From: a virus
Strand: one strand, 5' to 3'
DNA: 64,000 nucleotides
Virus record (IMG/VR): IMGVR_UViG_3300023106_000001
Span: 1,485 to 65,484 of that record
In this document: in pieces, positions 241 to 63,576 of the stretch
How positions within the stretch are numbered: the first letter of the stretch is position 1
Layout of the letters: each line of letters starts with the position of its first letter
Program-made: the position numbers and the translations under genes
Notes under the pieces: model-generated
Seen by the model: only the letters and a program-made list of their open reading frames with translations
Databases searched by the model: none
What the model was told of the DNA's origin: nothing

Positions 241-1595
241 TTATTCTGAGACTAACAAACTTTTTAGTTCTTTTTTCACGGCGCGTAAAGCAGTTAGTTT
301 AAAACTTGTCTTCATAGAACCACCCGATAACCCTTTTATTTCTGCTGTTATCTCATCAATACGTTTCTGAATCAATTCATTTTTAGCTTCGTATCCAGCT
401 TTGAATAAGTCTTTATTACGTATACAAGTATTATCATAATTAGAAATTACATAGTCTTCTTGGTTAAATCCGTGTGTTAGGAAATAGATATCTAGTGCTT
501 TCATCTTATAAGTAGTTTAACTGTTATCGCACCTGATATTAATGTTAAAATCATATACTTTAAAACTTTTTTATTATTTGTTTCTGTGTAAACTACGAAT
601 ACCGCACTTAAATACTTTAACCAAAGTAAGATTGTACAACATACAAAGAAAGGAATTATGAAAAACATTATTGGATTAAAATTATTCCCACTCATTTGGA
701 TCTCCTTTTAAAAACTTATTAATTTCAGCTATATTCTTTTTTATGGCGGGCAGAACAGAAAGGTTAGAGCACAAACCTACAGTTATACCATTAATAGTCA
801 CTTCACAAGCTAAGTCATTATCTTTCAACAACTCTTTTACTGCGTTTAACATTATAAGTTCATTTTGGGCTTCTCTTGTATCCTCAATTTTATTATCGTA
901 ATTTATATTATTTTCGTATTTCATATCTATTTGGTTGTATTTGTCCGTGTATTGAATAAAATTTTTTAGCGGATGTAATGAAGGTTTTAATCATATCTAA
1001 AGCATCCTCATTAAAGTTTGATTTTTCATAGAAATCCCAGTTGGTATTTGCTAATTGTAAAGCTGGATCAAAAGCCCAATAGTGCTGACCAAAATAAATT
1101 CCAAACATAGCAAAAAATTCTTGTTTTTCCATAATTTACATATCAAATGAATCATTTCTTTTATATACTCCGTCCTTATTTGGCGCATTAAATCGAGGTT
1201 GTTCGGATTTCGCGGAAAAAAGATTTAAAAAACAGTCATACATGTCCTCATCACTATATCCAAACCATTCTTCAGCTCTTTCCTGAGTATCTACTTCTCT
1301 TAACCACAATGCAAATTTAATTGCTGTTTCTTTAGTTGTCATTGTTTTCAAGTTCAGTTTTTACTTCATACCAAAATTCAGTTATTTCTTTTACTTGCGG
1401 AATTGTCAAATAAGACTTCACTCTGTATCCATTATACTCCGATAAGATTTCTTCAACAGTTCTTATAGACGACTGATTAGCTTTCCATTCTGCAACTTTG
1501 TCACTACTTACTCCAAAGAAATCTAAATGGTTTTTCTGTAGTTCTTTTGCTTTCTCTTTTGGTGTCATTTTATAATTCTTTAAATCGTTTCTCAA
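241..1595 (-). other. cluster of six small overlapping hypothetical phage ORFs (64-87 aa)
   Basis: co-oriented ORFs with overlapping stop/start codons; no recognisable motifs. Confidence 0.65.
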
Positions 1596-2385
1596 TTTTA
1601 TCTAAATGCTCTTTTGCAATAGGTTTTCCAGAAGTGTTTAATTTCAAGAAATAGTTTAAAACTGCTTTCTCACTCATATTTTCTTTTCTAGTAACAGCTA
1701 CAGAAACCGCCGTATTTTCAAACACATATTTAAATTCCCAAGGAAGTTCCGAATAATAATAACCTTTATAAGTAAACTGATCAGTGAAAAATCTGTATAG
1801 GGCAGTTAAGCGTTGTTTTCCATCGAGGATCTCATACATTATAGGTAAACTGTATCCTAAGTGAATAAATACAAACTTCCCAATATCCACTCTATTAAAA
1901 ATAGATTCAATAAGTTTCTCATTATTTTCATTATTCCATACTAACTCTCTTTGATAATCAGGATTAAAATCAACTCCAAAACTAATTATATAAGATTCTA
2001 CTAAAGAACTCACACTTTGTTGCATGAATTGAAGTCTTAAATCTTCACCCAAATCTAAATCACACTCTCTATTACTTAATTTAAAAACATCATACCATCC
2101 TAAAATTCGTTTTCTAGCGTCAATGTATTCATCCGAAGAATAAGACTTAGTAGTTTTATAAGTTATAAATACTTCATAAATATCTGTATCTATTATATCA
2201 ACTACTTTGGCCGAAATAAAACCTCCGTTATGTACATAAACATCCTCTCCTATCGTAAATTTCTTTCTGTCATTTGGAGCATATCCAATTCTAGTGAAAT
2301 CTTCTTTGATATCTTTTATTGTACTTGCTTTATTCTGTTCGTAGATTTGCTCTTGAGTTAGTTCTACTTTTACTTTTTTGGCCAT
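1570..2385 (-). CDS. DUF262 (GmrSD N-terminal / ParB-like fold) domain protein with an extra N-terminal domain
   Basis: motifs FNPDYQRELVW, EILDGKQRLTAL and FLKLNTSGKPI typical of DUF262. Confidence 0.8.
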   Translation of the reverse strand: MAKKVKVELTQEQIYEQNKASTIKDIKEDFTRIGYAPNDRKKFTIGEDVYVHNGGFISAKVVDIIDTDIYEVFITYKTTKSYSSDEYIDARKRILGWYDVFKLSNRECDLDLGEDLRLQFMQQSVSSLVESYIISFGVDFNPDYQRELVWNNENNEKLIESIFNRVDIGKFVFIHLGYSLPIMYEILDGKQRLTALYRFFTDQFTYKGYYYSELPWEFKYVFENTAVSVAVTRKENMSEKAVLNYFLKLNTSGKPIAKEHLDKIEKRFKEL

Positions 2386-2522
2386 TATTTTATAATTTTA
2401 GGTGTTTTTCGCAATTCTTTTAAGCCATTTGGCGCGCAAAAAGAGTGAAAAACAGTTAATTTTAATGCAAATATAAATGATATTAATTTACTGTGCAAGT
2501 AAACACACGGATATTTCAAATT

Positions 2523-5245: not shown

Positions 5246-5978
5246 TATTATTCCTCCAATTTAAATTTTTCAAAAAACTCCTGCTTTGATCTACAATATT
5301 TCTTAGTATAGCCAAACTCTCTGTAAATTACTGCCTCTACCCATACATCATCTTCTTGTATTTCACAGTAGTCTAGTATTACGTAGGAATTGTTATTTAT
5401 ATAGTGTATGTATAATTCCATTTTTTCTGTCTTTTTATTCTTTTCCCGCGAAATTATTTAACTAATAAATCTCCACACTTCAAACACTTCTTAGTTTTTA
5501 CTTGACCTTTAGTTAATATTGTTATGTCAGAAGTAAATTCATAATAAATATGATCACAACCTTTTTCCTTTCTATTATACCAAGCGTTTAATACAGATTC
5601 TATGCTCATAAATTTCTATTTTTATCAAATTTATAAGCTGTTGGTATTCCTAGGATCATTGAATTTACAAAATCTTGATCTAATTCTTTTTTCGCGGCCG
5701 ATTGCCTTAGTTCTTCGCTTGCCCACTCTTCATGTATTTTCTTAAAGTATTTCATAACTTATCCTCCAATTCAATTACAACAAATCTTTTAACTGTTTCT
5801 TCCCAATTATATGGTGCATCTTCTATATAAAAAGGCTCACTATTAGATTTATATTTGACTTCCTCTAAACTTTCTTCCCACTTATCAACTTTGTCTTCAT
5901 ACCAATATTTATGACTGTCAGCATTAAAGCTTTCAATTAATCTTGTTATATCTTCTTCTGTTATTATGTATGTTTTCA

Positions 5979-6503
5979 TTAAACTGTTGTTTTAGTTTTT
6001 TCTTCCGCGGATTTTACCATTCCTAACGCTCGCTGTAAACCAAACTCCAACGCCTCTTCATATGTTTTATACCACGTCATTAACTCCATAGAGAAACTTG
6101 ACAGTCGTTCATAAAAATCCCACGTATCCTTTTTTCTCCCTTTACCCTCAGGAATATCATAAACTATATTCCATACATAAGCAGTCTCTGAGTCATCTAT
6201 AGTTTCAAAGTCTATCAACAGTCTAATATTATGTATTTCTCTTAAATACTGTTGCAAAAAAGCTTGTGTATAAGCGGGAGCTATATGAGGCTGACCTTTT
6301 CTGTTTTTAACTATCTGAAACATATTGTCGTTGTAGTCTTCAGGCATTAAGTTTTTATTCAATTGCCCATCAGCTTTAAAATTCATGAATGGATAAACAT
6401 AATAGTGAGTATGAGGTAAATCTAAACTTTTTTCTTTTGCTAATTTAGCAGTTTCAAATGATATGTATTGTTCCATTATATCAAATATGTTTTTGGTGAT
6501 CAA
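5979..6503 (-). CDS. hypothetical protein, paralog family A
   Basis: ETAKLAKEK...TQAFLQQYLREIHNI...YKTYEEALEFG shared with 6669..7097 and 8794..9237. Confidence 0.7.
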   Translation of the reverse strand: MITKNIFDIMEQYISFETAKLAKEKSLDLPHTHYYVYPFMNFKADGQLNKNLMPEDYNDNMFQIVKNRKGQPHIAPAYTQAFLQQYLREIHNIRLLIDFETIDDSETAYVWNIVYDIPEGKGRKKDTWDFYERLSSFSMELMTWYKTYEEALEFGLQRALGMVKSAEEKTKTTV

Positions 6504-8793: not shown

Positions 8794-9237
8794 TTATTTT
8801 GTGTCATTTTCTAATGTTTGTTTTATTGCGGATTCTAGGCATTTTTCATATGTATCATAAACACCATCTTTTAAATCAGATATCTTTACATAAGATTCAT
8901 CAACAATATCAGTTCCACTCCAACAATATCCTAATGCACCAATAAATACAGCAATATCTATTTTCAATTCCTCCCTAATCCACTTCTGAATCTCACAAAG
9001 TAAAAGATAATCACAAGTATCATTTATTAATAAGTTCTTTCCTTCTCCTAAATGGTATTTTAGTGTTACGGAAGTAGAAACTGTTTTTGCTTTAAATCCT
9101 TTTTCGCGCGCTAATTTACAAATTTCTTTCATATTATCAAATTTTTCCATTTCTATCTCAATTTCTTTAAGCCTCTTATCTGAAATAGAGGATATCAAAT
9201 CGTCTATTATTTTACTTGTATATAATTTGGCTCGCAT
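8794..9237 (-). CDS. hypothetical protein, paralog family A
   Basis: CKLAREKGF...IQKWIREELKI...YDTYEKCLE. Confidence 0.65.
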   Translation of the reverse strand: MRAKLYTSKIIDDLISSISDKRLKEIEIEMEKFDNMKEICKLAREKGFKAKTVSTSVTLKYHLGEGKNLLINDTCDYLLLCEIQKWIREELKIDIAVFIGALGYCWSGTDIVDESYVKISDLKDGVYDTYEKCLESAIKQTLENDTK

Positions 9238-11128: not shown

Positions 11129-11439
11129 AATGTTTTGCTTTTTTATTTCTACAAATCTAAGTATTACTTTTGATTCCTACAAGCTTTTTGTTGATTATTT
11201 TTAAACTGGGTATAATTAGGGCTTCTAACAGTGACTTTATATTAACTTCCGTTTCTTTTTCAACTGTTCTTTACTCTTTTACGCGCGAAGATTGGCAAAA
11301 CTGTTAAATAAATATGTGCTATTGATTATAACGGCGGAAACTCTGTAGACAAAGAGTGTCAAAAACAGTTATTTTAATTATTCCGCCAAGAAAAATAAAG
11401 CACAAGAAGCAAAGAATAATACAATTAATAAAGTAATTT

Positions 11440-11795: not shown

Positions 11796-11796
11796 T

Positions 11797-11908: not shown

Positions 11909-12115
11909 ATAAAATCTTTGTATTTCGTATTTTAAAGCTGTAAATATACAAAAATAATATCCATTCACCAAACAACTTAATTTTAGAGTAAGCCTTAATT
12001 TCGGCGCGGAAAAAGAATAAAACAGTAGAAAATAAAAAACAGGACAAAGATTTCTCCTCATTCTGTCTTAATCAAAAAAGTGTAATAATCAATTTAATTC
12101 CCGAAAAGTGGAATA

Positions 12116-13231
12116 CTAGAACGGATCTTCAGATTTCTTAGTATCAGGAACATCAAAAGCAGAAGCTAAATCAAAATTAGGAGCTACTTGCAACGGCTTC
12201 TCTACAGTGAAATCAACAGTATTGAATGATGGTAATGTATTTGTAGAAAAGCTTGGTTTATTTACTTCTTTTTTCGCCGAATTTTGACCTTCCTTAGTAA
12301 ACATTTGTTCAATAAATAAATCCTTTATATTCTTATCATCTTTAACCGATCTAGTTTTAAGATAAAAATAAAATGCTCGGCCATATGGGTCAAAACTAGC
12401 TGTATTTCCAGAACCAAATATTTTATGCTCATCTAGCCAATCATAAGAATCTTTTCCAAATACCATGAACTTCTCACGAATACCTAACTTCCAAGGAATA
12501 AGTTTAACATATAACACATCGCACAGCTTAAAGAGTTGGTCTGTTCCATAAATATCACTATCAATAGGCCTATGATGTTTAGGATTATCCATCCTCAAAA
12601 TGTAATTTTGGTTCATCTGATTCAACACAATGAAGCAAATATAAGGATGTAAGTTTTTTAAACGGTTAACTTGGTATAAAAGCGCATCCATAGAATCCTT
12701 TTGCGATCCTTTAGAAACTAAAATATTCTCCAAGTTGTCAATAGCTACAACAATTTTTTTGTCTTTGTGTTTTTCAATTTGCTCTTCTATGTCTGACGAA
12801 AATACATCAGGCGTGACTGGCTCGTTTTGGTATAAAACATTTTCTGTTCTATTATCATCACAAATCTCTTTTAATTTAGCATGACGCTCTTTGTCAGGTT
12901 TCTCAAATAATATGGTTCCAATATGTTCACCAGTTCTTTGAGAGATATCACGCAATAATAATTTAAAATGACTTAGCTCCCAATTACAGTTGATATATAA
13001 AACATCTTTTTGCGTTTTAAGAATGTGGCGTTGAATTCGCTCCATATCCCAGCTTTTTCCGTGACCACTTCGCCCGATTAATCCTAAAACAATTCCAGGA
13101 GTAAGTCCTGAAAGCAGAGATTCGTCCAAATGTTCTATACCTGTAGAAATAGGCTGTAGTTCCCCAGACTGGAATTTTCGAATTGTAGCTACTGTTTCTT
13201 CTGTTAACTCTTTTCCCGTCTTCAACGCCAT
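12116..13231 (-). CDS. dnaB: DnaB-like (SF4) replicative helicase
   Basis: ISTGIEHLD, Walker A GRSGHGKS, VAIDNL Walker B, IVLNQMN, acidic C-terminal tail. Confidence 0.8.
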   Translation of the reverse strand: MALKTGKELTEETVATIRKFQSGELQPISTGIEHLDESLLSGLTPGIVLGLIGRSGHGKSWDMERIQRHILKTQKDVLYINCNWELSHFKLLLRDISQRTGEHIGTILFEKPDKERHAKLKEICDDNRTENVLYQNEPVTPDVFSSDIEEQIEKHKDKKIVVAIDNLENILVSKGSQKDSMDALLYQVNRLKNLHPYICFIVLNQMNQNYILRMDNPKHHRPIDSDIYGTDQLFKLCDVLYVKLIPWKLGIREKFMVFGKDSYDWLDEHKIFGSGNTASFDPYGRAFYFYLKTRSVKDDKNIKDLFIEQMFTKEGQNSAKKEVNKPSFSTNTLPSFNTVDFTVEKPLQVAPNFDLASAFDVPDTKKSEDPF

Positions 13232-15853: not shown

Positions 15854-16708
15854 TTATATCTTTAAGTGATTCACTATACCATTCCCAATTATCAACTCCA
15901 CCAATTTCCAAAGCAGAGAGTATTTCATCCCGTTTTAGTAATTTTTCATACTCTGAATATTCAATTTTAACCTCGGAATCAACAACAATTAATTTCTTTT
16001 TAGACTCTAATTCTTTGATGTCTGATTTTAATTTATCGTAATCCTTAATTGCCATTTCAGTTAAAAATTTTCTGTTCTCAACAACAGCATCCATCTTATA
16101 AATTTCTGATTTGTTGTCAGACAATTGTTTTTCTTGTTGCTTAATCAAGCTCTTATTTTCGGCAACAATATCAATCAGTCCGTTAAGAACATCTTTATTT
16201 CCTTTAATTTTATCAACAAGACCTTTGTTTTCTCTCCACTCGAAAGGAACATCTTTTAAATCTTTAGCTGGAACATAAAATAATTGCTGATCTTTTATTT
16301 TATAATCCTCGATAATTCGCTCTACAACATCATAGGCTTTTGCAACTGATTCATCACAGTAACATGTTGATTTGTGACCAACCATACAAGCATCACAACC
16401 CCTGAAAGATTCTGCGATATGATCTAAATCAATATCTTGTATTTCAATATCTACGAGTATTTGATAAAAATCAGCTACTTCATGTTTTTGTAAAACTAAT
16501 ACAGGGCGATTGTTGTAATATTTAATTGTTTTTAATATATCCATAATTACTTAATTTAATTTTATTATCGTCTTTTAATTCTTCTAAAGCTATTCTTACA
16601 CTATATACAGAACAGTTTAATTGTTTTGCTATGTAATTTCTGTTTATTACTTGTTTTTCGCGCGAAAATAAATTTAAAACAGATTCTTTATTTATTTTAT
16701 TGTATTTT

Positions 16709-20210: not shown

Positions 20211-21705
20211 TTATTTATAATTTTTAAATTTCGGCGAATAAAAAAGACAGCAGAAAACTATCCACTGTCTTGAATGCAAATATAAGAATATAATACTACT
20301 TATACAAACTACTTAATTTTAATCAAACTGTTTAAATTCTCTGTCTAAACGCTCTAAAAGTTTAGTATTATAATCTACTTTTGCGATTAACTCTTCTAAT
20401 GTTTTTGATTCATTTTGAGTTTTATCTACGAAATAGGTTAATGCCTGACAAATTCTCGTAAAATAAAGTTTTCCTTCATATAAATACTCTTCTGTCTTAC
20501 CTGACTTTACTTTTTTACCGTTCTTTGTTTCTAATTTTTCTCGCTCTCTTATTTCATGGAAAGTTAAAATTATTCCATTATCTCCGTCACTTGTCAAATG
20601 ATGACTTGAATCTAAACTAATCGTACTTTGTTTTTCAAATGTTTTATTCATCTTTCTTTTTCTCTAAATTAATACCTTGAATTTCATCATCTCCCCAATC
20701 TTCTGAATGTTGACCGAAATAGTAAGATAACTCATACCCGTCCCTTTCCCATTCTACCTCAAAATAAAAAATTGTGAATTTTGATCCTTCTCTAAAATAG
20801 CCATCTTCTTCTCTTGAAATTTCTTTCCAACCGTCTTCGTCCTCATTTTCTAAGCTAAAACAGTATTTTTCTAATTCAGAGGATGATAATTTAATAATGT
20901 CTTCTATTTTCATTTTATTTGTTTTTAAGTTTATAAATATCCGAACGCAATTGCGCAATCTTCCCCAATATCACATAAATTACCTTCCTCTTCATCATAT
21001 TCCCAATCATCCTCATATTCATGATCTGGTTGTTCATAATACTTGGCTACTTTTTCTTCTAAAGCGTACCACTTATCATTTACTTTTTGAAGTTTATTTA
21101 ACAAATCTACTATTTCAACTGTAGATAATACAACTCCGTCTTTTAAAATTAATCCACCATCTCTCGTGTACATATCTTATTGTTTTAAAATTTCTAATCT
21201 TTTTTCGGCCAATTCTCTATCAAAGAAAGGCATTTGTCCCATGTATCCATGATCATCATCTATTTCATATGCGCCTATTGTGCAGGAAGAAACAGTAAAA
21301 CCGAAAATTTTAATTTCTTTCTTAATCCAATAAGAAGTAGGACAGCCCTTATCATAAGGAGGTTTTTCTATTAATGTATACATTGTCATAACTTTTCTGT
21401 ATAAGATGATACTGATTTAAAAAATGAATTCTCATTTAAACCTTTTTGATAAGTTAACCCATCCAATGTAACTTTAAATCCCATATCAAATAAACTCATA
21501 GTTTTTATAACCCCCTTTAATTTATCTGCATTATCACTAACTGCTACTGAATTCATAGCTGATTGAATTGCTTTTGCAATATTTTTGACTATTTCGTCAA
21601 CTCCATTACATCTAGGGTCAATGAAAGGACTGACACTTAAAGCAGTTTGATATTCTGTTTCTGAAACATCTTTAAAATCCATATTTGTTATCTTTAGTTA
21701 AAATT

Positions 21706-21899: not shown

Positions 21900-21947
21900 C
21901 TTACCATTAATTTCGCGGAAAAAGAATTAAAAACAGCTTTTCCTCTG

Positions 21948-39100: not shown

Positions 39101-41468
39101 TATTACTATGTCTATGTCGTTTATTATTGTTTGGATGTCCATAATTTTACTGTTTTTAATTCTTTTTTGCGCGCCCTTATGTCGTGTTCCTTTACATATA
39201 TGCACTATAATACGACATTTGCCACTTTATAGACTATGTAATCAATAGTTTCATAAGGAATATCTCTGTCTAAGGTTCTAGTTGATACACTTAATAAGGT
39301 TGATACTTGTGTTTTGAACCTGTAAATAGTTATTTCCTTGGTATTTTTGTCTAGTACTGCATATTTTAATGCTCTTTTAAGTACTTTCTTATTGTCTTTA
39401 TGTCGCATTCATTAGCTTATACGGTTAATAATACGACAAATGTAATAATATTATTTGAATTATACTACTAATGTTCTATATTTTTAAATTTTCCTATCTC
39501 TGTTACTGTTTCTAAACTTGTTTTAAGTTGTTCGTCTAATTTTTCATTGTATAGTTTTTCTATTGCTTTGAATAGTTCTATACTTTGTTTAGGTGTTTTA
39601 TCTTGAAGTATTATTTTTACTATTATTGATATTTGTATTTGATTGTCTTTTTTAACTGTTTCTATCTTTTTTTTGCGCAAATAAGCTTGGCATTTTTTAA
39701 TTAGTTTTTCCATTGTTTTAGTTTTTTATTCCCGCAGAATTTTCGTTATACCATTTAATAAAGTCAATACAGGCGTTATAAACAGATTCTATTTTACTTG
39801 TACCGTTTAAATTAATAATTTCATCATAAGGAAAATCTTTAGTATTTATTATTGATACACAAGAACCCGTATAAATAGCAAAATCGAACTCTAAACTCTC
39901 TATCTTTTCTACTACTAACATCAACCAATCCCAACTATTATGAAAATATTTATAGTTATTAATGTCATTCATTAATTCAGGGTTTCTTTCTCCACCCTCA
40001 TATAATTCATTCCAAATGATGTTTAAATCCTCGTTATAATTCCTACTTAGGAACTCGGCTAATAACTTATTGTTTTGTGTTGTATCTTTCATTTTTTACT
40101 TTTTAAATTATTTTTCGCGCCAATGTTAATAAACTTTCTTTAGTTCTCCTATCAAAACTTGATATTGAAATTTAGATTTGTTTCTCACTACACATAAACC
40201 CGAAGTAAAGACAGAGACTATTTTAACTCTCTCGCTGGTTGTATCGCAATAATATAATGATGTTGTTTTCATATCTCTAATTTTTAAATAATTGTTTTAC
40301 CTCTTCTTTCATTGTGTGCAGACCGTCTAGAATAAAGTTTTCGCTTTGTTCTTTGTCTCCTAAAGAAATAGTGTTGTTGTCTTTTGTTCTTTTTATGTAA
40401 TAACTGTTTTTTATTTTTATTAGTTGGTATTCTTTTGTTGATTGTGTTTTTAATACTGTTATTTCTCCTTTATTCATTCTTTTTTCGCGGAAAACCTTCT
40501 TATTAAGTTGTTCCTGTCTTTCTGTTATTTTGCTCATGATAGTTCTCTTTTTAAACAGTTGGTTTTTAAACTGTGGTTTGTTTTGATTTTATATTTTTCG
40601 TAGGCAGTTCGCGAAGTGTTACAAGTTCTAAAAGTATTCAATTCTTTTTGTATTGCCTTGAACGCTTCATGTCTATAGTGATCTCCATAACCATACTGAA
40701 ACGGTAATTTTATTGTTGTTTCATTCTTTTTGCCCGCATTTACAATTACTTCACCACTGAAATAACTGTTACCGTTAACCTTGTCAAACCATTCTTTGCA
40801 GTTAACATCTATTGTTTTTATATCGTTTGCTCTCATGTTAGTGTTATTTAATATAATTAATTTTCTTTAGTTGCTCTATTGTGTATGTATCCCAATCAAA
40901 CCAGCTTTGTACTTCTTTCTTTGACATCGTTTTAAACGTGCCTTTATGAGGGACATATTGTTTAATTTTTACTATTCCATATTTGCCAAACTCAGCAATT
41001 AATTTACCAAGTGTTTCAAGTTCGTTATTAAATATAAAGTGTGAAGATTGACCGTGAAAGTCAACCGACCAAATTGCGTTTGATGTTGATATGTATGACA
41101 TAATGTTATAGTTTAGAAGTTAAATAATTTAATATACACTCTGTTACTGGAATGAATGTAATAATTGCTATGATTGTTATTACTAATAATAAACAACCTT
41201 GTCTCTCTTTTGATAGTTTCATAACTGTTTTCTTTTTAAGTTTTTATTTGCGCGAAAATCAATTAACTGAGTTAACACTATAAGCATTATCTTTTGTTAC
41301 CCACTTACCGTTGATCTTTTCAGATAATATAAATGCATTATAACCAACTCGAAAACCTACTAAATTATAACCGTTTCTTGTTGCATATTGTTTGGCTCCT
41401 CTTTCTGTTTTTGATGTGTCAATTAAACATAGTTCGCTGTTTAATACACCGTAGATAATTTGTGACAT
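33147..41468 (-). other. array of about 25 small hypothetical ORFs, probable early / host-takeover region
   Basis: dense co-oriented 60-146 aa ORFs downstream of promoters at 41812 and 41939; includes paralogs 37128..37424 and 39718..40092 (WDWLM.VVEKIESL). Confidence 0.6.
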
Positions 41469-41946: not shown

Positions 41947-42441
41947 CATTGAAAGTTTATTAAAATAAAAAATATTTCGCTAGGATATTAAATTTGTTTT
42001 CATTATACTACACGCGTCGCACGTTCCTATACTATGTAATTTCCGCAAAAAACAGTTAAAAACAAAAAACGCAATTAAATTGATTTTCAAAAACACATAT
42101 TATTATATAGAATAAACACAAACAAAGAAAGTAACAAAATAAATATTCTATAGAAACAAGTGTAAATAAGAAATATAAGAATAACTCACAAGCTAAAAAC
42201 ACAAAGAAAAAACTTGAAAAAGTGAAACCGATTTTAAGGCCTTGTAAGGAAATCAAATCGAAATGGTATAGAATGATGGGGGTATAGAGGAACTTTAATC
42301 CTGCGATATATAAGGTAAGCTAAGGTGATTCTTCGGAGGTACGTCCACGATATAATCAGAAATTAAAAATAAAACCTCCCACCAAAAATTGAAAACTTTT
42401 CAAAATCCAGAGGGAGGGGTACATTTTAGAGGCGGGGTTAT

Positions 42442-43349: not shown

Positions 43350-44858
43350 ATTCTATATCATTTAAATAACTTTTTATTACTTTATAAAAATTATCCCAAG
43401 ATACTGGTTTAAAACTTTTATCTGTTGCGGAATCATATCTGTAATAAATTTTATCTTCGTTCATTTCACTAATTAATATACATAATTTTTTATCTGAATA
43501 AGGTAAAATTCTTAATCCTTTAGGTTTAGATTCTAATAAAGCTTTTTTAACCTCTTCAGAACTAAATATTTGTTTTTTATAAATTGTTTCTGGTATCATT
43601 GTATATAATGTTTTCATATTTACATTTCTTCTATTAAGTCGTTATCTATTAGTAACTGTTCGTAATCTTCTATAGTTTTTATTGCTTCTTTAACTTTTTT
43701 CGCCGAATCTTCATCCAAGAATTTCTCTGGTTTAAAATAAGCCCCTATAAATAAATCATAGTAAAAGTCATCTGTTGTCACTGATTCTAAATTTCCGTCT
43801 TTTAATTTCATTTTACTAATTCATCAAATATTAAATCAAAAACAGTTTGTAATAGTTCTCTGTTCTTGTGATTGTTTCTATGCGCTTTAATTCTTATTTC
43901 AATTCCTAAATCTTCATGTTTGCCTATCACTGTTGAAGGCATAATTCCACATTGTTGTCCTCCTGTATATTTATGAGGTTCTACAGATATTTGAAACTGT
44001 TGCTTAAGTTCTTGTATTCTTTCTTCTAGTGGTTTCATTTTTATTTCTTTTTCGCCGAAATTACATTGTAATATATTCTTCAAAAGATATCAATTTAATA
44101 CCCTCATTTCTTTGATATTCAGAGCTACCCACAGATCCAACCGAAAAGCCTTTTTTCTTATTACCTTTAACTATAACAGCTGTTTCTAGCTCTGACATTT
44201 GTGGAACCCATTCAATATATAGATTCTTTTCCCCTAAATAAATTTTCATACTGTTAAACTCCCTTTCATTTTTAACAATAACTGACACTCCGTTTTTTAA
44301 TTTCATATATTTCTTTTTCTTTTAAAACTAGCTCTTACTAAATTGAAATCATACTTGTAAAACATTTGTTGTTTAAATATGGTACATAGTAAGCAACTTA
44401 TTATTAGGTTTAAATTTTCTATTTTTATCATTTACTTGCTTTTTATTCTTTTTTCGCGCAAAATTAAACAATTGTCGGTGTTTTATAGTATTGATTTTTA
44501 TACTCGTATCCACACGAAGTATCTTTACTCTCTTCTTTAGATACTTCTTCTACTTCAAGAGTGAAAATTGAACCCACCATCATAACTTGTTTTACTTTTA
44601 CAAAAACCTTAGTAGTTGTCTCTTCATACCCTCTAGTATTATCATAATATTTATAATCATCCTGAACTTTTTCAGTGTAGTAAGGATTGGATGAGAAAAC
44701 TGTTTTATAACTTTCACTTTTTACATTTAAAGAAATAAATTTTGTTTCTGCATTTGTTTGAGAAATTACGCCTGAAGCTTCTACATTTGTTTCAGAGTGA
44801 TTATTTACCTCTTGCGTTGTAGTTCTTCTGTCTACTATTGTACTGTTAAACATTATTT

Positions 44859-45032: not shown

Positions 45033-45852
45033 ACTATTTATTTCGCGCGATTTAATAACTCTTTTATTTTACGACTATCAATTCCAGTAACTATACCCAA
45101 CTCATATTCTTTTAATATAAGTTCAAGAACTTCTAAAGCTTCCTGACCGCAAACAATTAAATTAAAATCTCTGGAAACCTCTTCTTCTCTTTCATCTTGA
45201 TTTTCCTCAGTTGTATCTTCATCATCAATTGATTTTGTACAGATTAGTCTGCCATCTTGATTGTATATTGAAGTGTCTGACCAACTATGTTCTACTATTT
45301 CCCATTTCTCCATATTATTTTTCTTTATTTAATTTTTTTCGGAAAATCCTTTCTTCAATTCTATTTATTATTTTATATAATTCGTATCTGACTTGATCAG
45401 CCTCGGCTCCAAATTGTCCATGTAAGTCATGACTAATTTGTGCTAATTCTTCTTTTATTCTTTCGTATTTCATAATATTCTTTTTAATGCTTCTGCTTTT
45501 TCTTCCTCAAAAAATTCTTTTTCAATCTTTTTGCCCGCGGTACCCAGAATAAACTGCTTAAATTGGTAAGGCGCTTCGTCAGAACTGTCTTCTATAATTG
45601 TAATACCAAACCTATTTGCAAAATTCTGAATCTTAGTTAACTTATAATCTGAATAATTGTCTTGATCTTTCTCTCCAAGTTCCATTTTGTAAACTATTAG
45701 ATCAGTTTCAAAATAATATGTTCCTGGTTCTACTAATATTGCTTCTGTTACTACTTCTGTGGTTTTTGTTATTCTCATTATTTATTTTTTACAAATCTAC
45801 TAATTATTTTTGAATTAACAAAATAAAAATTGATTTATTTTTTGCGCGAAAT

Positions 45853-45878
45853 AAAAAATCCCTCAATTAAGAGGGATT
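45853..45878 (-). terminator. intrinsic terminator
   Basis: perfect AATCCCTC/GAGGGATT stem with T-run on the minus strand. Confidence 0.75.
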
Positions 45879-46236
45879 GTATTTAGTATCTTGAAGTACA
45901 AGGCGAGGCTTGTTCAAGTTCTCTGGGCTGATATACTAGTTCTGAACTTCTTCTTAGATTAGATCTTTGAAAGTGAACTTGATTTTCTATTTTATTTACC
46001 AGAATATTAATATTTGCAAGAATTCCTTCAGATGGAGAAGGTTCTGCCCCAATGCCTTTTGAATCGTCTTTTAATTCTCTGTGAATTGTCTCGTTTATAT
46101 TAAAATGTTCATTATTATTTTCTGAATATTGATTTAATATTTCTTGTAATCTGTACTGAATGTTTTCTAATGTCATTTTTAATTGTTTTAATCGATTATT
46201 ATTTGTTTTTGATAGTTGTGTATACTTTGCTAATTT

Positions 46237-48307: not shown

Positions 48308-49042
48308 TTAATTACCAATTTTTGTTCCTAGCCAAAACCCAACTCCAACACTCACAGGAATTAAAGCTTTTTCTAGCCAACTTTTAGTTTTTAATTTACT
48401 GTTTTCCTTTTCTAACCCGTTATTTAAATTTGTTTGCAGAACATTCAATTCTTTATATGAATCTAAACTTTTCTCCGTAGCTTTTAAACTAATATCTTTA
48501 TCTCTGAGTTGCTGATCTTTTAAGTTTACAACACTGTCTTTAGAAGAAAGCTGTATATCTTTTTCTTTTATGATGTCTTGCGCCGTATTAGCGTCAGCAA
48601 TAGTTTCAAGAATTTGGTAAGTCATTGAAGGCTTAACATCAACAGAATTAGATGTAGCTACCGCATCTTTAGAACCGTAATTCTCATTTAAAGCTTCGGC
48701 CACTTCAACTAAGTTTTTATTTCTAATTAATTCTTTCTGTTTTTTATTTGATTCCTGTAAAGCTATAACTTTTTTCTCACTGTCTTTAGCTTTTTGCTGA
48801 AACTCATTAATTTGTTTTTGTTTTCTTATGTCTTCGGCCTTAATAGAATCTCTTAAAATTTGCAGAGTCTTATCAATAGTTTTTACACCATCTTTTAATT
48901 TCTCTACTTGATCTTTCAAAGCATCATTTTTGCCCGCCTGGAATTTCTGTTGATTATTTACACAACTTTTTACGCCGAAAAAAATCAGAACCAGCACTAT
49001 ACCTAATGCTGGCCATCTATACTTATTTACTATTTCTTTCAC
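48308..49042 (-). CDS. membrane-anchored coiled-coil protein
   Basis: hydrophobic N- and C-terminal segments flanking heptad repeats. Confidence 0.6.
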   Translation of the reverse strand: MKEIVNKYRWPALGIVLVLIFFGVKSCVNNQQKFQAGKNDALKDQVEKLKDGVKTIDKTLQILRDSIKAEDIRKQKQINEFQQKAKDSEKKVIALQESNKKQKELIRNKNLVEVAEALNENYGSKDAVATSNSVDVKPSMTYQILETIADANTAQDIIKEKDIQLSSKDSVVNLKDQQLRDKDISLKATEKSLDSYKELNVLQTNLNNGLEKENSKLKTKSWLEKALIPVSVGVGFWLGTKIGN

Positions 49043-55149: not shown

Positions 55150-56095
55150 TTTTCGTTGTATTGTTCTATATTATAACTCCATCCAAATTTTGGTAAGTGC
55201 CTTTCGTAAATATATATTACTCCTCTACCTAAGTCAAAAATATATCTGTTGTAAAACCATTCTCCTCCTTTAAATTTTCGCCACCATTTAAATCTGTTCA
55301 TATTTACCATATCTTAATTCATACTCTTCTTCTGTGAATATTTTAAATTTCACTTTATTTATTTCATATTCTTTTTCGCCGAAACTTGTAGAATAAATAT
55401 TGGCCACAGAAGAAATAAATTTATAAGTTTCCTCAGACATTGGAATCGTCATAAATTTAGGTAGATCTGACTCTGACTTTATATTAGAGTAACTTGATGT
55501 TGTGTAAAAATCTTCCAAGAATTGTTTATATTCCTCCTCAGAAAGAACTTTTGGCTCTATGTAAATTGGAGTAGGAACTGTTTCTGTTATTGCATAGTAT
55601 TTCATTTACTTTTCATATATTATTTTTTTCAATTTTTCTCTCCATTCGTCATCAATTCTAGTTCTAATTGCCCATTCAGAGATAGATCCTCCAATATCTC
55701 TTTCAACTTTTGAAACACTTTTATAACACAAAGCTGTTTTTTCTATATAATCGATGTATTCTTCTGTTACATCCTCTTCGAAAAGTAATGTTATGCTTCT
55801 TATTCTGTTACTCATAATACTACTTTCTTTAATCTTTCTAACTTTTCTTTTAACTGTTCTAAAACTTCTATGTCATCCTTTTTCGCGGGATTAAAAACTG
55901 AAAGCAAAGAATAAGTTTTATATAAAGTAATTCCAATATTAAACTTATCATCCTCAATATCATTTGTAATATCATCAAATAAATCTAAAACAATATCTGC
56001 ATATGGAATCTCTGATTTATACCAAATTTCTGCTTTTAATTCTCCTATTTCTGCAATTGTGTCTTTCATCTCTTTATAGTATTCTAAGTATTCCA

Positions 56096-57492: not shown

Positions 57493-57857
57493 CTATCGTA
57501 TGTTTTATAATTTATTTCTTCTGTTACTTTTTCTAATAACTCTTTTATAACTTCTTTTTCCGCCAAAAAAATTGAAAGAGACTGTAATTGTTCATTACTA
57601 CCATCATATAAACTATGACAACCACAATTACTAAATCTTCCTCCTAGATATACAACATTTTGGTCATCACACATTATGGATTTAAAAGTTGATTTTGGAA
57701 GCCTGTGTGCTATCTCACTCACATCTCCTTTTAATTTTTCACCGCAATTTGTACAGTATTTTGATTTTGCAATTTCTATATGTCTTTCAAAAAATTCAGA
57801 TAAACCTGATCTCTCTTCTTTTCTTTTTTCTAAAGCTTTTTTACTGTATCTTTTCAT
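57480..57857 (-). CDS. small HNH/NinG-like zinc nuclease
   Basis: CTNCG...EIAHRLPK...NVVYL...CH..YD. Confidence 0.6.
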   Translation of the reverse strand: MKRYSKKALEKRKEERSGLSEFFERHIEIAKSKYCTNCGEKLKGDVSEIAHRLPKSTFKSIMCDDQNVVYLGGRFSNCGCHSLYDGSNEQLQSLSIFLAEKEVIKELLEKVTEEINYKTYDRWQL

Positions 57858-58291: not shown

Positions 58292-59609
58292 GTTCCTCCA
58301 CCACTTTCTGAATTATTTCCATAAACTCCCATCTCAATATCAAATTTAGTATCGAACCATAAATCATGATTTAAACTTCTCTCTGCTTCTGTTAGTCTCT
58401 CATCCATAGAGTTCACATAATATTCATTAGCTTTATTCATTGCTTTTATCCAAGGAGTTTTCCCCTCAAATCGAATTTCGTTTACGTGTTTCATAATTAT
58501 CTCAATAAAGATTTTAATTCATCAATAGTCTCTTGGTCAACTTCGTCTTCATCATATTCTAAATTTTCTTCGGATCTTTCAATAAATCTCTCAATAAAAC
58601 TATGATCATAATCAATTCCATTAGGGTGTTGTCTAAGAAACTCTTTTACTTTTTTCTTATCGTCAATAATTTTAAAATCATTTTCTTCCATTTGACCATA
58701 CACTTCTGAGTGTTTCCCCCAAATTTCACCGAAATCAACTGTTTCTCCTAAAAGGATTTCTTTAACTCTAAGTGCTTTTTCTAAAGGTAAAGATCTTTGT
58801 TCGAATACAGAACCGCCTCTTGAATCCCAAGACATTTGAAGAATAACTAATTTGTCTTCTTTAAGTTTAATTTCATTGCACTTTTCGGTGATATTTACTA
58901 AAGATAAAAACTCACCATTAATTTCAATTCCGTCTTTTTTATATTTTATGCTCATAATTTTATAATAAATCTTTTAAACTCTCTACAAACTGACCTCTTA
59001 ATGTATGTTCACTATCCAAAGCTATTTTTGAGCAGTCTAATTGATTTAAATCCACAGGTGATAGTTTGGTATCATCTATTTGAGATAGCTCTTCTAACAT
59101 GTTTTTTATTTCTTTTTGTGCGAAATCATGTTGTGATATTAATTCTTCTATTTTCTCTTTCATTATTCTTCGTTTTGTATAAAATGTCCTGCATATTCCA
59201 TCTTTTTATTAAAATGTTCTAGATAATAGAAGAAGCCATCTGGTGAAACATACATATTTCTTTTCTTCTTTTTAAGCTTTCTAGTTCTTTTTACAATACC
59301 TTGTTCGACTAATCCTGTGAACATTTCAAAAGTACAATGATCGTAACTTTCTCTCACTTCTTTAACAGATTCTATCTGTTCTGGTGTGTAGTCAAATTTA
59401 ACGAGAATCTTTTCATAAGTTTCCCAATCTTGTTTTGTTCCCATCTATTATTAATTTTAAACAAATTTACAAATTATTTTTTAAATTACCTAATTTTTAA
59501 GTAATTATTTTTAGTTTTTATTTTGCCGCCCTAATATATTTAACTGTTTCTTTTATTTTACTATAGTTTGGCGGCAAAACTAGAGACAAAGCTAATCAAA
59601 AAACAGTTA

Positions 59610-59756
59610 TTACCACGTACCCTACTTCAAACTGTAACTATGCGCAAAGTAATGCCCTGCTCGGGCGGAGGTTAACCAAGGTTCTACGCTTCGCTCCGTA
59701 CCTCGTTTAACTAATGAATTATTTTTTATCTGTTTTTGAAGTAGGGTACGTGGTAA
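59610..59756. repeat. perfect 22-bp inverted repeat with 103-bp spacer
   Basis: TTACCACGTACCCTACTTCAAA (59610-59631) / TTTGAAGTAGGGTACGTGGTAA (59735-59756). Confidence 0.9.
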
Positions 59757-61634: not shown

Positions 61635-61637
61635 AAA

Positions 61638-63281
61638 TTGGAGAATAAAGTAGTTTACGGCCAAGAAGCCAGAAAGTTATTAAAAGAAGGAGTAGATTTA
61701 GTTGCAAATGCAGTTAAAGTTACATTAGGAGCAAAAGGAATGAATGTGATGTGCGTAAGAGATTTACTTTTGCCTATCATTACTAAAGATGGTATTTCTG
61801 TAGCTAAAGAGATTGAATCAGAAGATCCTATTATTAACGCAGGATCATCCTTAATAAAACAAGTATCAAATCAAACAAATGAAGTAGCAGGAGATGGATC
61901 TAGTTCTAGTGTTGTATTAGCACAAGCTATTGTACATGAAGCCGATGAAGTCCTAAACACTGGAAAAGTTAATGCAATTTCTCTAAAAAGAGGATTAGAT
62001 TTAGCTTTAGATTTCTCTTTAAAACATTTAGATAAGTTAAAAACAAAATCAAGCAGTTTAAAAACTTTAAAAAATATCGCGAATATTTCTACTAATGGAG
62101 ACAAAGAAATTTCTGATCTAGTTGTAGATGCTATTAAAAAAGTCGGTAAAAACGGCACAATAAAAGTAGAAGAAACAGAAGAATTAAAATCATCTGTAGA
62201 ATTATCTTTAGGATACGAATTAGATGTGCCTTTTTCTTTGGCGGAATTTATTAATGACCGTGAGAAGTTTGAAGCTGTTTTTGAAGACATGAATGTTTTA
62301 ATTTATCAAGGACACCTAAAAGATAAAAGACAGTTGAATAAAGCTATTGAATTATCAACAACTAAAGATGAAAATGGAGAATTAGGAGTATTTGAAGGCC
62401 TTTTAATTATTTGTGATAACATTTCTGGCCACGTTCAAAAAGAGATTTTAGAATTTAGTTATCAAGGTTTTAAAATGATGAATTTAAGATCGCCTTCTTT
62501 CGGCGCAAGAAAGAATGAAACACTTAAAGATATAGCATCTCTAATAGGCGCAAAAGTTTACAGTGAAGACTTAGGTGATGATTTAGATAATGTTACTTTA
62601 GAAGGCCTAGGACACATTGACAAAGTGATTTCAGATGCTAATAAGTCAGTTTTAATCGGTGGAAAAGGAAATCAAGAAGAAATCAAAGAAAGAACAGCAA
62701 TTGTAAAACAGCAAATTAAAAACATCACTGGTGGTAAAAAAGAAACAGAGTATGTAAAAGAAAGATATTCTAAATTAACCAAAGGAGTTGCTGTAATTAA
62801 AGTAGGGGGATATTCCGCGCCAGAAAAAAGAGAAAAGACAGACAGAGTAGAAGATGCTTTATGCGCAGTCAGAGCTTGTTTAGAAGAAGGATATGTAGCT
62901 GGTGGAGGTGTAACCTATTTAAACATATCAAATGCTCTTAAATCGGCTAAAATAGAAACTAGAAATGAAGATGAGCAAAAAGGAGTAGAAGTTTTAGTTA
63001 AAGCTTTAGAAGCACCTTTCAAACAAATTCTTGAAAATGCAGGAATGCAAGACCAAACAGAAAACTATATTCACAATATTCAAAATTCACAATATTATGG
63101 AGATGGAATTGATTTACAAACACAAGAATATGTAGATTTATTTAAAAGAGGAATTATTGATCCAACAAAAGTAGAAAGGTTAGCTCTTCAAAATGCAGTA
63201 TCTATTTCAGGAACATTCTTAACTCTAGGAGCAATCACTTATAACAGTGCATCAATATTTATAGCAAATGGCCAAAAATAA
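61638..63281 (+). CDS. groEL: phage-encoded chaperonin GroEL
   Basis: ANAVKVTLGAKG, ITKDG.SVAKEI, AGDG, GVAVIKVGG, EEG.VAGGG, GIIDPTKV; TTG start. Confidence 0.96.
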   Translation: MENKVVYGQEARKLLKEGVDLVANAVKVTLGAKGMNVMCVRDLLLPIITKDGISVAKEIESEDPIINAGSSLIKQVSNQTNEVAGDGSSSSVVLAQAIVHEADEVLNTGKVNAISLKRGLDLALDFSLKHLDKLKTKSSSLKTLKNIANISTNGDKEISDLVVDAIKKVGKNGTIKVEETEELKSSVELSLGYELDVPFSLAEFINDREKFEAVFEDMNVLIYQGHLKDKRQLNKAIELSTTKDENGELGVFEGLLIICDNISGHVQKEILEFSYQGFKMMNLRSPSFGARKNETLKDIASLIGAKVYSEDLGDDLDNVTLEGLGHIDKVISDANKSVLIGGKGNQEEIKERTAIVKQQIKNITGGKKETEYVKERYSKLTKGVAVIKVGGYSAPEKREKTDRVEDALCAVRACLEEGYVAGGGVTYLNISNALKSAKIETRNEDEQKGVEVLVKALEAPFKQILENAGMQDQTENYIHNIQNSQYYGDGIDLQTQEYVDLFKRGIIDPTKVERLALQNAVSISGTFLTLGAITYNSASIFIANGQK

Positions 63282-63576
63282 ATTTCTAAAATGGTCAACT
63301 TGGAAGATGATCCTTAATTCTAGATTAATTGCTTACAAAAATAGTAAGGAGCCTTGGTGTAAAGAAAGAAGAGAAATCTGTAAAAATTGTGAATACAATA
63401 CTAGAAATAAGAAAGAGTTGACTTTCAGAGAAAAGTTTTTAATGTTTATTCAAATAACTAAGGCAGTTTGCAGTGCTTGCGGTTGCAGTACCAAAGCTAA
63501 GACCAGGCTTAAAATGGCAGTTTGTGGACTAGAAGAAATAGATTTAACTCCAAAATGGCGGGAAAAAGAAAACTAA
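63268..63576 (+). CDS. small Cys-rich zinc-binding phage protein
   Basis: ERREICKNCEYN...CSACGC...K.RL...C....W. Confidence 0.65.
   Translation: MAKNKFLKWSTWKMILNSRLIAYKNSKEPWCKERREICKNCEYNTRNKKELTFREKFLMFIQITKAVCSACGCSTKAKTRLKMAVCGLEEIDLTPKWREKEN

Follow-up and report, generated by a model that had tools for sequence, protein, structure and literature searches.

In T4-type phages, short regulatory units known as PeSLs (promoter-early stem-loops) recur among small, variable early genes in hyperplastic regions and form composite terminator/promoter cassettes (PMC2839356, PMC4122927). The two-barrel RNA polymerases of phages use compact, private promoter and terminator motifs, and the signals of P23-45 (gp96/gp64) are likewise lineage-private and confined to the early block (bioRxiv 10.1101/2022.12.01.518664). 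In phi14:2, a phage of the crAss-like group, the replication arm is early in its entirety, and an injected polymerase transcribes it; no promoter motif has been found, and the early promoters are still undefined (bioRxiv 10.1101/2020.03.07.982082). The hairpin promoters of the N4 virion RNA polymerase, also early-gene signals for an injected polymerase and with apparent dyad symmetry, require a stem of 5–7 bp and a 3-nt loop (PMC4496689). Oligo-T termination at hairpin-free non-template T-runs of 5–8 is on record for Pol III and for the archaeal and ASFV RNA polymerases (PMC8716108, PMC10965686). Bacteroidota lack Shine-Dalgarno sequences, and translation initiation relies on A-rich, unstructured leaders (PMC6847099). 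The Bacteroidota sigma-A promoter consists of −33 TTTG and −7 TAnnTTTG. The class II signal of T7 RNA polymerase is ATCTGTT; the Noc-binding site is ATTTCCCGGGAAAT, and the MogR site is TTTT-N5-AAAA.

The unit described here was found in an uncultured crAss-like phage from leaf litter, in a window of 64,000 nt. The entire signal spans about 30 bases and is asymmetric: in the orientation of the coding (minus) strand, a T-rich block about 19 nt long (TAACTGTTTTTWATTCTTTTT; consensus (TAA)CTGTTTTTWATTCTTTTT) is followed by a GC-rich and CpG-rich core of 4–8 nt, of which the composition but not the sequence is kept, and then by AAAW and an A-rich leader; in most cases, the start codon lies 19–29 nt past the core. 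The first-pass annotation had described the motif as quasi-palindromic, but the palindrome is only apparent, arising from the T-rich block upstream and the A-rich leader downstream; the end bases of the core are complementary in about 55% of the sites versus 50% expected (manual tally of the cores in the relaxed-frame list), that is, without dyad symmetry beyond chance. A TTG is present 19–23 nt upstream in about half of the units.

All eleven coordinates cited earlier contain the quoted strings. Under a strict definition (a maximal T≥3/[CG]4–7/A≥3 site), the window harbors 30 sites, about 0.5 per kb and not the previously estimated one per kb; with a relaxed T2/A2 frame, searched over the early arm (the window plus the 1.5 kb preceding it), 51 sites were detected, 49 of them within the window. 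The configuration T3-S5-8-A3 was observed 24 times versus a mean of 0.57 and a maximum of 4 in 200 dinucleotide shuffles, and a window scan for TTTSSSSSAAA (TTT-[C/G]5-AAA) yielded 16 occurrences versus 0.43 expected, a number reached by none of 100 shuffles. The mirror frames AAA..TTT, TTT..TTT, and AAA..AAA occur only 0–3 times in the window. The early arm's coding strand has 25 occurrences of TTT-S5-8-AAA and one or two of each of the other three frames, whereas the equally AT-rich structural arm contains TTT-S5-8-AAA three times. The codon-preserving comparison that had been suggested gave the same picture within genes: called genes contain 29 framed sites versus 12.2 ± 3.5 (maximum 22) in synonymous-codon shuffles. 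Therefore, the coding copies are about 2.4-fold enriched, and about 40% of them are attributable to protein sequence and codon usage. Given the enrichment over shuffles and the absence of mirror frames, the border signal is real and under selection, as had been surmised for a DNA-level signal lying partly atop coding sequence.

The motif was present in every relative fetched (backwards control, 0), and the unit is kept in relatives whose protein identity goes down to about 55%; the T-block is conserved among them and the core is variable. The motif is absent from phi14:2, which is likewise crAss-like and has the same base composition. It is far rarer in 41 Bacteroidota genomes, its density in the phage being 3 to 50 times theirs.

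The distribution had been described as window-wide, but functionally it tracks the early/replication arm and the sense strand. The density is 354 per Mb in the minus-strand early/replication arm versus 58 per Mb in the structural arm, and of the L-type units scoring 8 bits or more, 20 lie in E, 2 in E2, and 1 in the structural arm. The early/replication arm is also rich in variable small genes. Framed cores are found 10–40 nt (mostly 19–29 nt) upstream of start codons: for 20 of the 51, the first ATG of an ORF with 30 or more codons follows 10–40 nt downstream, compared with 4.6 expected, and the positioning is repeated in two relatives (24% versus 10% in G001 and 21% versus 8% in G003). Unframed GC runs showed no such bias. 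Twenty of the 49 framed sites are intergenic, in an arm of which intergenic DNA makes up 13%. The earlier statement that many sites fall within the last 5–30 nt of genes holds in part: 7 of the 49 are located in the final 30 nt versus about 2.5 expected, but 20 are intergenic and 21 lie deeper in called ORFs. The concentration at cistron borders is supported, and the C-terminal peptides noted previously (SAEKE and others) are by-products, because the signals overlap the 3′ end of the preceding gene. The restriction to the early arm, the sense orientation, and the set distance to start codons together point to gene expression, and not to the packaging, partition, or nucleoid-binding role considered at first.

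The individual sites, all on the minus strand and given in window coordinates, illustrate this arrangement. At least 12 genes are preceded by this unit only, in gaps of 32–68 nt without space for a canonical promoter, which is hard to reconcile with a pure terminator. The L-type unit at 1207..1237 (T-arm, CCGCG, and AAAT; PWM 14.9 bits) is separated by 22 nt from the ATG of the ORF that follows and is intercistronic in relatives, with the layout TAG-AACTG...CCGCG...ATG. The L-type units at 35590..35620 (core CGCCG, L = 16.9) and 36138..36168 (GCGCG, L = 16.2) fill gaps of 68 and 32 nt, 38 and 19 nt before the ATG, and are followed by one at 36720..36750 (CCGCG), 56 nt before the ATG; a short unit, TAG-TTTTTT-GCCCG-AAATT, at 37449..37466 (39-nt gap, 28 nt before the ATG); the L-type unit TAA-CTGTTCTTTTATTTCTTTT-CCCGCG-AAAAA at 37928..37959 (L = 15.6; 52-nt gap, 27 nt); and an L-type unit at 38548..38586 (GCGG, L = 15.0; 61-nt gap, 26 nt). 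Further L-type copies lie at 33644..33674 (CCGCG, L = 9.2) and 34849..34880 (CGGGCG, L = 9.1), the latter conserved in G001.

R-type units precede an ATG at 5423..5454 (TTT, CGCGGG, and an A-rich arm, R = 13.4; 23 nt, filling a 32-nt gap), 5983..6014 (CCGCGG, R = 10.4; 25 nt), 39147..39180 (GGGCGCGC with AAAAAAGAATTAAAAACAG, R = 15.0; 26 nt), 40094..40125 (GGCGCG, R = 9.4; 23 nt), 41228..41258 (TGA-TTTT-CGCGC-A-rich; 27 nt, layout conserved in L004 and L006), 44031..44061 (CGGCG, R = 12.0; 15 nt), and 44433..44463 (TAA-TTTT-GCGCG-AAAAAAGAATAAAAAG; 23 nt, kept in L005 and L006). Other R-type copies are located at 5671..5704 (within an ORF, CGGCCGCG with AAAAAAGAATTA, R = 10.3), 9083..9115 (GCGCGCG with AAAAAGGATTTAAAGCAAAAACAG), 27251..27282 (CGGCGG with AAAAAAAGATTAAAAC, R = 14.0), 39653..39682 (GCGC with A8GATAGAAACAG, R = 12.0), 40710..40741 (GCGGGC, R = 15.3), and, already cited in the first-pass annotation, 55355..55385 (CGGCG with AAAAAGAATATG, R = 8.7). 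The R-type copy at 12253..12283 (CGGCG with AAAAAAGAAG), within a helicase-like gene, is probably a coding by-product. Gene ends are overlapped at 26673..26722 (…S-A-E-K-E-stop; CCGCGG, 17 nt upstream of a −7 box TATATTTG), by an R-type unit at 33494..33523 (…F-G-K-N-K-stop; CGGC, 14 nt before the next ATG), and by a two-armed unit at 30417..30465 (GCGCG with AAAAAATAA, 29 nt before an uncalled ATG); two-armed units are also found at 16637..16686 (CGCGCG; L = 14.6, R = 12.0) and, within an ORF, at 57538..57586 (GGCGG; L = 12.7, R = 11.3).

The signal is most likely a phage-specific transcription signal. We tentatively favor, at somewhat less than an even chance, a gene-expression signal private to the phage lineage, namely a start signal that in many cases is joined to the preceding unit's U-tract. 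Such a signal for transcription initiation would be compact: the T-block, which melts easily, would serve as the upstream element, initiation would occur at or within the GC core, and the A-rich stretch would provide the untranslated leader needed by Bacteroidota-type, Shine-Dalgarno-less translation. If the preceding gene extends into the unit, only 2–4 T of the T-block are left, and the core and A-run serve as the final codons, which gives Ala/Arg/Gly-Glu/Lys C-termini. The 3′ half of the T-block (TAWTTCTT) aligns with the sigma-A −7 box if transcription starts at the core, but the invariant TTTG is replaced by TCTT or TTTT, and true canonical promoters exist separately, in both arms. Unlike in the N4 promoters, no stem other than T:A is possible, and pairing between the ends of the core is at chance level. 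Several observations fit a start signal less well. Host-type promoters (TTTG-N19-TAnnTTTG plus an upstream block) occur throughout the early arm, even before its first gene, a difference from phi14:2, so that another promoter class is not obviously needed there. The symmetric minimal frame is odd for a promoter, as are the inverted early-arm copies, a subset of which shares the same position-specific T-block features (p about 0.001). One structural-arm copy, with an ATG just 4 nt past the core, also counts against this reading. A search for a virion polymerase gene revealed virion proteins of 2.1–2.2 kaa without a DxDxD motif.

The most serious alternative, although rather unlikely, is a hairpin-less terminator or strong pause. 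The polymerase would stop or pause at the T/GC junction, as the rU:dA hybrid formed over the two T-runs is weak and melting farther downstream is hindered by the GC core; the timing of downstream gene expression would then depend on read-through, perhaps with the help of a phage factor. Such a signal would resemble oligo-T termination or the T7 class II signal, and the T-runs, including a recurrent CTGTT followed by a T-run, are shared with these; the phage unit, however, has in addition a GC core and an A-run, and those polymerases may be unrelated to the one that reads it. The virion polymerase of P23-45 has a conserved 26-nt hairpin-less terminator motif (10.1101/2022.12.01.518664). The T-block often begins directly at the upstream stop codon (TAA-CTG…), and for 4–6 of nine hairpin terminators in the early arm, but none of four in the structural arm, it forms the U-tract, followed by the GC core and A. 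Examples are 20228..20272 (hairpin terminator, TCTTTTTTATT, CGCCG, and AAATTT, located in the RNR small-subunit gene's leader at 21 nt from the ATG) and 48969..49012 (11-bp hairpin, CTGATTTTTTT, CGGCG, and TAAAAAG; conserved in L004 and L006). Also in keeping with termination, units are found at the 3′ ends of long non-coding stretches, directly upstream of canonical promoters: 11998..12031 (w12002; L-type, CCGCGCCG, 11 nt upstream of the promoter block, with CGCCG in the L003 orthologue), 11379..11409 (w11383; L-type, GGCGG, L = 11.2, at a non-coding unit's 3′ end within a 987-nt gene-free region), 42039..42068 (w42043; L-type, GCGG, L = 14.1, behind a structured stretch about 90 nt upstream of the promoter, kept in L006), 59566..59612 (w59570; T-rich block, GCCGCC, and AAAC at the end of an 837-nt non-coding region, about 100 nt upstream), and 45840..45880 (w45844; hairpin terminator, TTTTTTATTT, CGCGC, and A6, 35 nt upstream).

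Units 23–30 nt downstream of a canonical −7 box look like promoter-proximal pause sites or attenuators. These include the L-type units at 2427..2459 (GCGCGCC, PWM 15.8 bits; 30 nt downstream of TATATTTG, upstream of the DUF262 gene) and 21910..21940 (CCGCG, L = 15.6; 29 nt downstream of TAAGTTTG, 23 nt in the L057 orthologue); for units of this kind, which are co-conserved with the box, a leader pause or attenuator would fit equally well. In contrast, six or seven tandem units are interspersed among small genes over 4 kb without an intervening promoter, where efficient termination would silence these genes. Copies compressed to 2–4 T still have the core at its usual distance from the ATG, the model assigns no role to the conserved A-run that follows the core, and the convergent junction at the arm end is an ordinary bidirectional hairpin terminator without a GC core. 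Searches of the phage revealed no antiterminator-like gene; nor did they yield a sigma, NusG-like, or Q-like factor, a result that also counts against the start signal.

An mRNA-level leader element is unlikely. The U-rich, GC, and A-rich stretches would act in the transcript, either as a processing site that releases each cistron with an A-rich 5′ leader or as a boundary that holds open the A-rich region for translation initiation in a host that lacks Shine-Dalgarno pairing. The fixed distance to start codons, the sense bias, the occurrence within polycistronic stretches, and the unusually unstructured region (mean z = −0.02 over 22 sites) are consistent with both variants. However, only a minority of early-arm genes carry the unit, GC runs in general are not positioned by start codons, leaders of this kind also precede structural-arm genes but lack the core there, several units are in non-coding regions far from any ORF, and the core is not complementary to the anti-Shine-Dalgarno sequence (by inspection).

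Improbable, too, is the original idea that the motif is bound by a DNA-binding or architectural protein of the phage or host. This protein would recognize the narrow minor grooves that the T- and A-tracts form on either side of a GC center and act in repression, nucleoid organization, partition, or packaging. In its symmetric minimal frame, the motif is similar to T3-GC-A3 sites, for instance those of Noc and MogR, early-arm copies occur in both orientations, and positions beside canonical promoters would suit an operator. Yet the variable core length of 4–8 nt and the absence of dyad symmetry argue against a dimeric ParB/Noc-type reader, core sequences differ even among orthologous sites, non-coding DNA contains about 13 sense T-blocks versus 4 inverted ones (manual tally), and the restriction to a single arm speaks against packaging or partition. 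The ParB-fold DUF262 (GmrSD_N) protein proposed as the reader (gene at 1570–2385) cannot have this role, because the complete relative G001 lacks the gene and carries the motif at the same density. A very improbable by-product of composition, that is, GC-rich codons (Ala, Arg, Gly, Pro) between Phe/Ile/Leu and Lys/Glu/Asn codons in an AT-rich genome, is valid for part of the deep coding copies, in line with the 12 of 29 that synonymous shuffles alone yield and with a 4–5 times sense-strand enrichment of GC runs followed by an A-rich 12-mer in both arms, but is already refuted for the intergenic and L-type copies by the 20 intergenic sites, the missing mirror frames, the conservation in relatives, and the lack of the motif in the structural arm and phi14:2 despite shared composition.

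For the preferred start signal, a close parallel is the PeSL, in which a terminator part is likewise fused to a start part, with the function of the phage unit deduced from sequence. At one site (2427..2459), the promoter and T-arm are invariant across four relatives, homology ends exactly within the core, and the downstream gene differs. Unlike PeSLs, the phage unit has no sigma-70-type promoter hexamers, most copies lack a stem-loop, and homology breakpoints genome-wide are no nearer to the motif than to gene starts generally. The polymerase reading the start signal may be the one that crAss-like phages inject, or a host enzyme in modified form. As the T-block in several places would also be the U-tract of the preceding unit's terminator, we propose that the whole may constitute a terminator/promoter border cassette.

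The early-arm cistrons of the phage are bordered by a real, selected and lineage-private motif. The first-pass annotation had proposed a selected quasi-palindrome spread over the window, and the strings that it quoted were present at every coordinate cited. T3-[CG]5-8-A3 occurs 24 times in the window compared with 0.57 times (maximum 4) in dinucleotide shuffles, and a scan for TTTSSSSSAAA yielded 16 occurrences against 0.43 expected. Read along its coding strand, the early arm has 25 occurrences of the TTT..AAA frame and 1–2 of each of the three other frames, whereas the equally AT-rich structural arm contains the TTT..AAA frame 3 times; in phi14:2, a crAss-like phage of the same base composition, it is absent from both arms. 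The idea of a signal overlaid on coding sequence held in part: the coding copies are enriched, with 29 GC runs in a relaxed T2/A2 frame ("framed" sites) versus 12.2 ± 3.5 in synonymous-codon shuffles, but a sizeable share of these would be expected from the protein sequences in any case.

The same specificity was observed in the relatives of the phage. TTTTSSSSSAAA has 7–28 matches in each of five relatives, and its backwards control has none in all five; the complete relative G001 accounts for 28 matches, none of which lies in its 65-kb structural arm. The motif density in the early arm is 354 per Mb, compared with 3–57 per Mb in 41 Bacteroidota genomes, where the backwards control is similar in size. 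Thus, the equal density in the host chromosome that would have spoken against a selected signal was not seen in any of the 41 genomes, which were sampled from the likely host phylum. In these chromosomes (G006–G046), backwards AAA-S5-TTTT is about as common as TTTT-S5-AAA, and it is virtually absent from the phage clade (0–1 per genome). A scan of IMG/VR with AACTGTT-N8-16-TTTTSSSSSAAA returned, among the matches listed, mostly single occurrences, which are probably due to chance; several matches per contig were found only in the same clade.

The phage record, derived from leaf-litter metagenomes, comprises 140,992 bp with terminal repeats and 30% G+C, and the window corresponds to bases 1485–65484. 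The early arm (E + E2) consists of minus-strand genes at genome 62,207–1 and 131,529–140,992, and encodes DNA polymerase A, ribonucleotide reductase, a DnaB-like helicase, a UvsX-like recombinase and many small ORFs. The structural arm (L) consists of plus-strand genes (genome 62,208–131,528), with GroEL at its start and huge virion proteins. No close cultured relative was found, as megablast gave no match and the top match of the DNA polymerase was about 35% identical, and the window contains no Rfam families or tRNA genes. The early arm is extremely mosaic: only about 25 of its approximately 72 kb (genome 1–62207 and 131529–140992) align as DNA with G001, the conserved proteins of which are about 98% identical to those of the phage, and the small-gene block at 33–40 kb of the window has no counterpart there. 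A 234-aa protein encoded at window 15840–16544 carries a C-terminal T7 gp5.9-like RecBCD-inhibitor domain (PF25708, E = 1e-14).

On the coding strand, the intergenic copies of the unit comprise a T-rich block of about 19 nt with the consensus (TAA)CTGTTTTTWATTCTTTTT, followed by the GC core and AAAW. By weight-matrix scoring, units with the T-block upstream of the core on the sense strand were classified as L-type, and units with its mirror image, an A-rich arm, downstream of the core as R-type. With scores of at least 8 bits, there are 20 L-type units in E, 2 in E2 and 1 in L, and 28 R-type units in E and 9 in L. The L-type units represent the core of the finding because they run against the coding-strand purine bias and are mostly intergenic. 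The R-type copies are in part A-rich leaders and Lys/Glu-rich coding sequence, common to both arms, although position by position those of the early arm resemble the T-block more closely than those of the structural arm. In non-coding DNA, a hand tally gave about 13 T-blocks in the sense orientation versus 4 inverted.

The core is 4–8 nt long, most commonly 5 (CCGCG, CGCCG, GCGCG and their complements), and varies between orthologous sites (CCGCGCCG versus CGCCG; GCGCGCC versus GCGGCG versus GCGCG). In a hand tally of the cores, the end bases were complementary in about 55% of the sites, no more often than by chance, so that a dyad-symmetric core was rejected and the quasi-palindrome resolves into a T-rich block and an A-rich leader around a GC-rich spacer. 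The leaders before the start codons are indeed A-rich and lack a Shine-Dalgarno sequence, as expected for a Bacteroidota host (PMC6847099). An apparent palindrome may thus be a T-rich upstream block meeting such a leader, which calls for caution. Folded as RNA, 22 units were unstructured (mean z-score −0.02), and an RNA hairpin or a long AU stem with a GC loop was rejected on these grounds. The anatomy of the unit, a hairpin-less T-block with a GC core under constraint in composition but not in sequence, is new. Repeated regulatory cassettes of phages are a known kind of element, and the function proposed here for the unit is inferred.

The units are set relative to the next gene. Among the 51 framed cores of the whole early arm, 20 lie 10–40 nt upstream of the first ATG (of ORFs of at least 30 codons), compared with 4.6 expected, with a mode at 20–30 nt. 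Unframed GC runs showed no comparable bias, and the bias recurs in G001 and in the more distant relative G003. The stop codon of the preceding gene is located anywhere from 31 nt before to 11 nt after the core. Of the framed sites, 20 occupy intergenic DNA, 7 fall within the final 30 nt of a gene, and another 21 are located further inside called ORFs, which include doubtful small ones. C-termini such as SAEKE, FGKNK and FAE are therefore dictated by the motif, as had been noticed at the outset, through chance overlap with the end of the previous gene; in a compact genome, the final codons of upstream genes can be imposed by a regulatory signal. The few structural-arm copies are found among small genes at the distal end of that arm (genome 127028, or 125544 in window numbering; positions 89702 and 90464 in G001), and in two structural-arm copies the ATG follows only 4–5 nt after the core.

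Four settings of the unit can be distinguished. In setting (a), it stands alone in 32–68-nt gaps separating small genes, with six or seven consecutive cases at 34.8–38.6 kb. In setting (b), it lies 23–30 nt downstream of a canonical −7 box and is co-conserved with it; aligning four relatives showed an unchanging promoter and T-block and a loss of homology within the core. In setting (c), it occupies the 3′ end of a long non-coding stretch, 10–100 nt upstream of a canonical promoter. In setting (d), it directly follows a true hairpin terminator, the U-tract taking the place of the T-block, which applies to 4–6 of the 9 early-arm hairpin terminators versus none of the 4 in the structural arm. 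At genome 131,495–131,560, where the convergent arms meet, a 20-nt gap holds one bidirectional hairpin terminator (A6-TCCTCAC…GTGAGGA-T-rich), shared by both arms and devoid of the core.

Bacteroidota-type promoters with a third upstream block (ctctaaaattaagtaATTTG-N19-TAnaTTTGca) are present in both arms, also before the first gene of each arm. Strong examples are located at window 2468, 11949, 20277 and 60564 and, in the structural arm, at genome 70175, 79523 and 93434; they presumably represent the 'tripartite' middle/late promoter described for crAss-like phages. At window 20247–20277, in the leader of the gene for the small subunit of ribonucleotide reductase, a hairpin terminator lies within about 10 nt downstream of a canonical promoter, an arrangement that looks like an attenuator. 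Three gene-free stretches of 0.8–1 kb (window 11129–12115, 41469–42441 and 59445–60281) have canonical promoters of their own and GC-rich structured segments; they are reminiscent of the non-coding regions that are highly transcribed in phi14:2.

The unit itself was compared with several known systems. The −7 box of the Bacteroidota sigma-A promoter, TAnnTTTG, is not matched, as the T-block reads TAWTTCTTTTT and nearly every unit lacks the G, whereas bona fide TAnnTTTG boxes occur elsewhere in the genome. With regard to the −33 TTTG of such promoters, which lies about 19 nt upstream of the −7 box, about half of the L-type units have TTG 19–23 nt upstream of TAWTTC, and in several of these the TTG belongs to a canonical promoter, as its −7 box. 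The N4-type hairpin promoter, an inverted repeat with a 5–7 bp stem and a 3-nt loop, does not fit either, because the core is 4–8 nt long and the flanks offer only T:A pairs. Like a PeSL cassette, the unit sits between small, variable early genes, with gaps of 32–68 nt in the small-gene block at 33–46 kb, most genes of which have no homologue even in the 98%-identical relative; unlike a PeSL cassette, it has neither a host-type early promoter nor a stem-loop. Of 70 homology breakpoints, 8 map to within 40 nt of a unit, a share not above that of gene starts in general (13%), so that a role as a genome-wide recombination hot spot is not supported; the one clear case of a putative recombination junction is the site at which homology ends inside the core.

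We tentatively rank first the reading that the unit would be a start signal private to the phage. The T-block would serve as upstream element, RNA would be initiated at the GC core, and the A-rich stretch behind it would become the leader; where a terminator precedes the unit, the T-tract would be common to both, as in the PeSL terminator/promoter cassettes of T4-type phages (PMC2839356, PMC4122927). This reading derives mainly from setting (a), in which the unit is all that lies upstream of a dozen or more genes, and a row of efficient terminators would silence these. It accords with the literature: phi14:2 has its entire replication arm transcribed early and by the injected polymerase, for which no promoter motif was found (10.1101/2020.03.07.982082), and two-barrel polymerases of phages use compact private promoter and terminator motifs (10.1101/2022.12.01.518664). 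Counting against it are the host-type promoters all along the early arm, the symmetry of the minimal frame together with the inverted orientation of some copies, and the failure to find in the phage either a virion polymerase gene (by BLAST with phi14:2 gp65–67, a DxDxD scan, PHROGs and PDB sequence searches) or sigma-70 regions 2 and 4, a NusG-like factor or a Q antiterminator.

The chief rival, which we consider unlikely, is a hairpin-less terminator or pause site, at which a weak rU:dA hybrid would be followed by a GC block. It fits settings (b), (c) and (d) well and setting (a) poorly. T-runs of 5–8 directly 5′ of the core are long enough for the U-tract of an intrinsic terminator (at least 5), but in most units no GC-rich hairpin precedes the tract; a real one precedes only 4–6.

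Somewhat less probable still is that the unit would be a start or combined stop/start signal for the polymerase injected by crAss-like phages, which would enter the easily opened T-block and start RNA at the bounding GC core. At the place of the phi14:2 polymerase module, the phage encodes two virion proteins of 2.1–2.2 kaa (L013 and L014, genome 112528–125509), neither of which contains a DxDxD motif; their sequence comparison with solved structures yielded nothing beyond a marginal match (E = 0.004). A search for a T7-like RNA polymerase (PF00940) gave no match and was uninformative, since the control genomes likewise had none.

An element of the leader acting in the mRNA is improbable. A DNA-binding site, including the roles in packaging, partition or nucleoid binding suggested by the first-pass annotation, is slightly less probable still, as arm restriction, sense bias and the set distance to the start codons argue for gene expression, and a ParB/Noc-type palindrome of fixed length is not matched by a core varying in length and sequence. 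The ParB-fold DUF262/GmrSD_N protein (window 1570–2385), put forward as a speculative reader, has to be dismissed, because PF03235 is found only in the present phage (G000) and is absent from the complete relative G001, which carries the motif at full density (28 matches).

The finding bears on the starts and boundaries of early transcripts in crAss-like phages, for which phi14:2 is the only case studied. The lineage supplies about 40 well-defined, orientation-biased units of simple anatomy that are suited to direct experiment. If the injected polymerase were indeed their reader, they would constitute the first sequence-defined promoter for this class of polymerases, unusually recognizable in this lineage.
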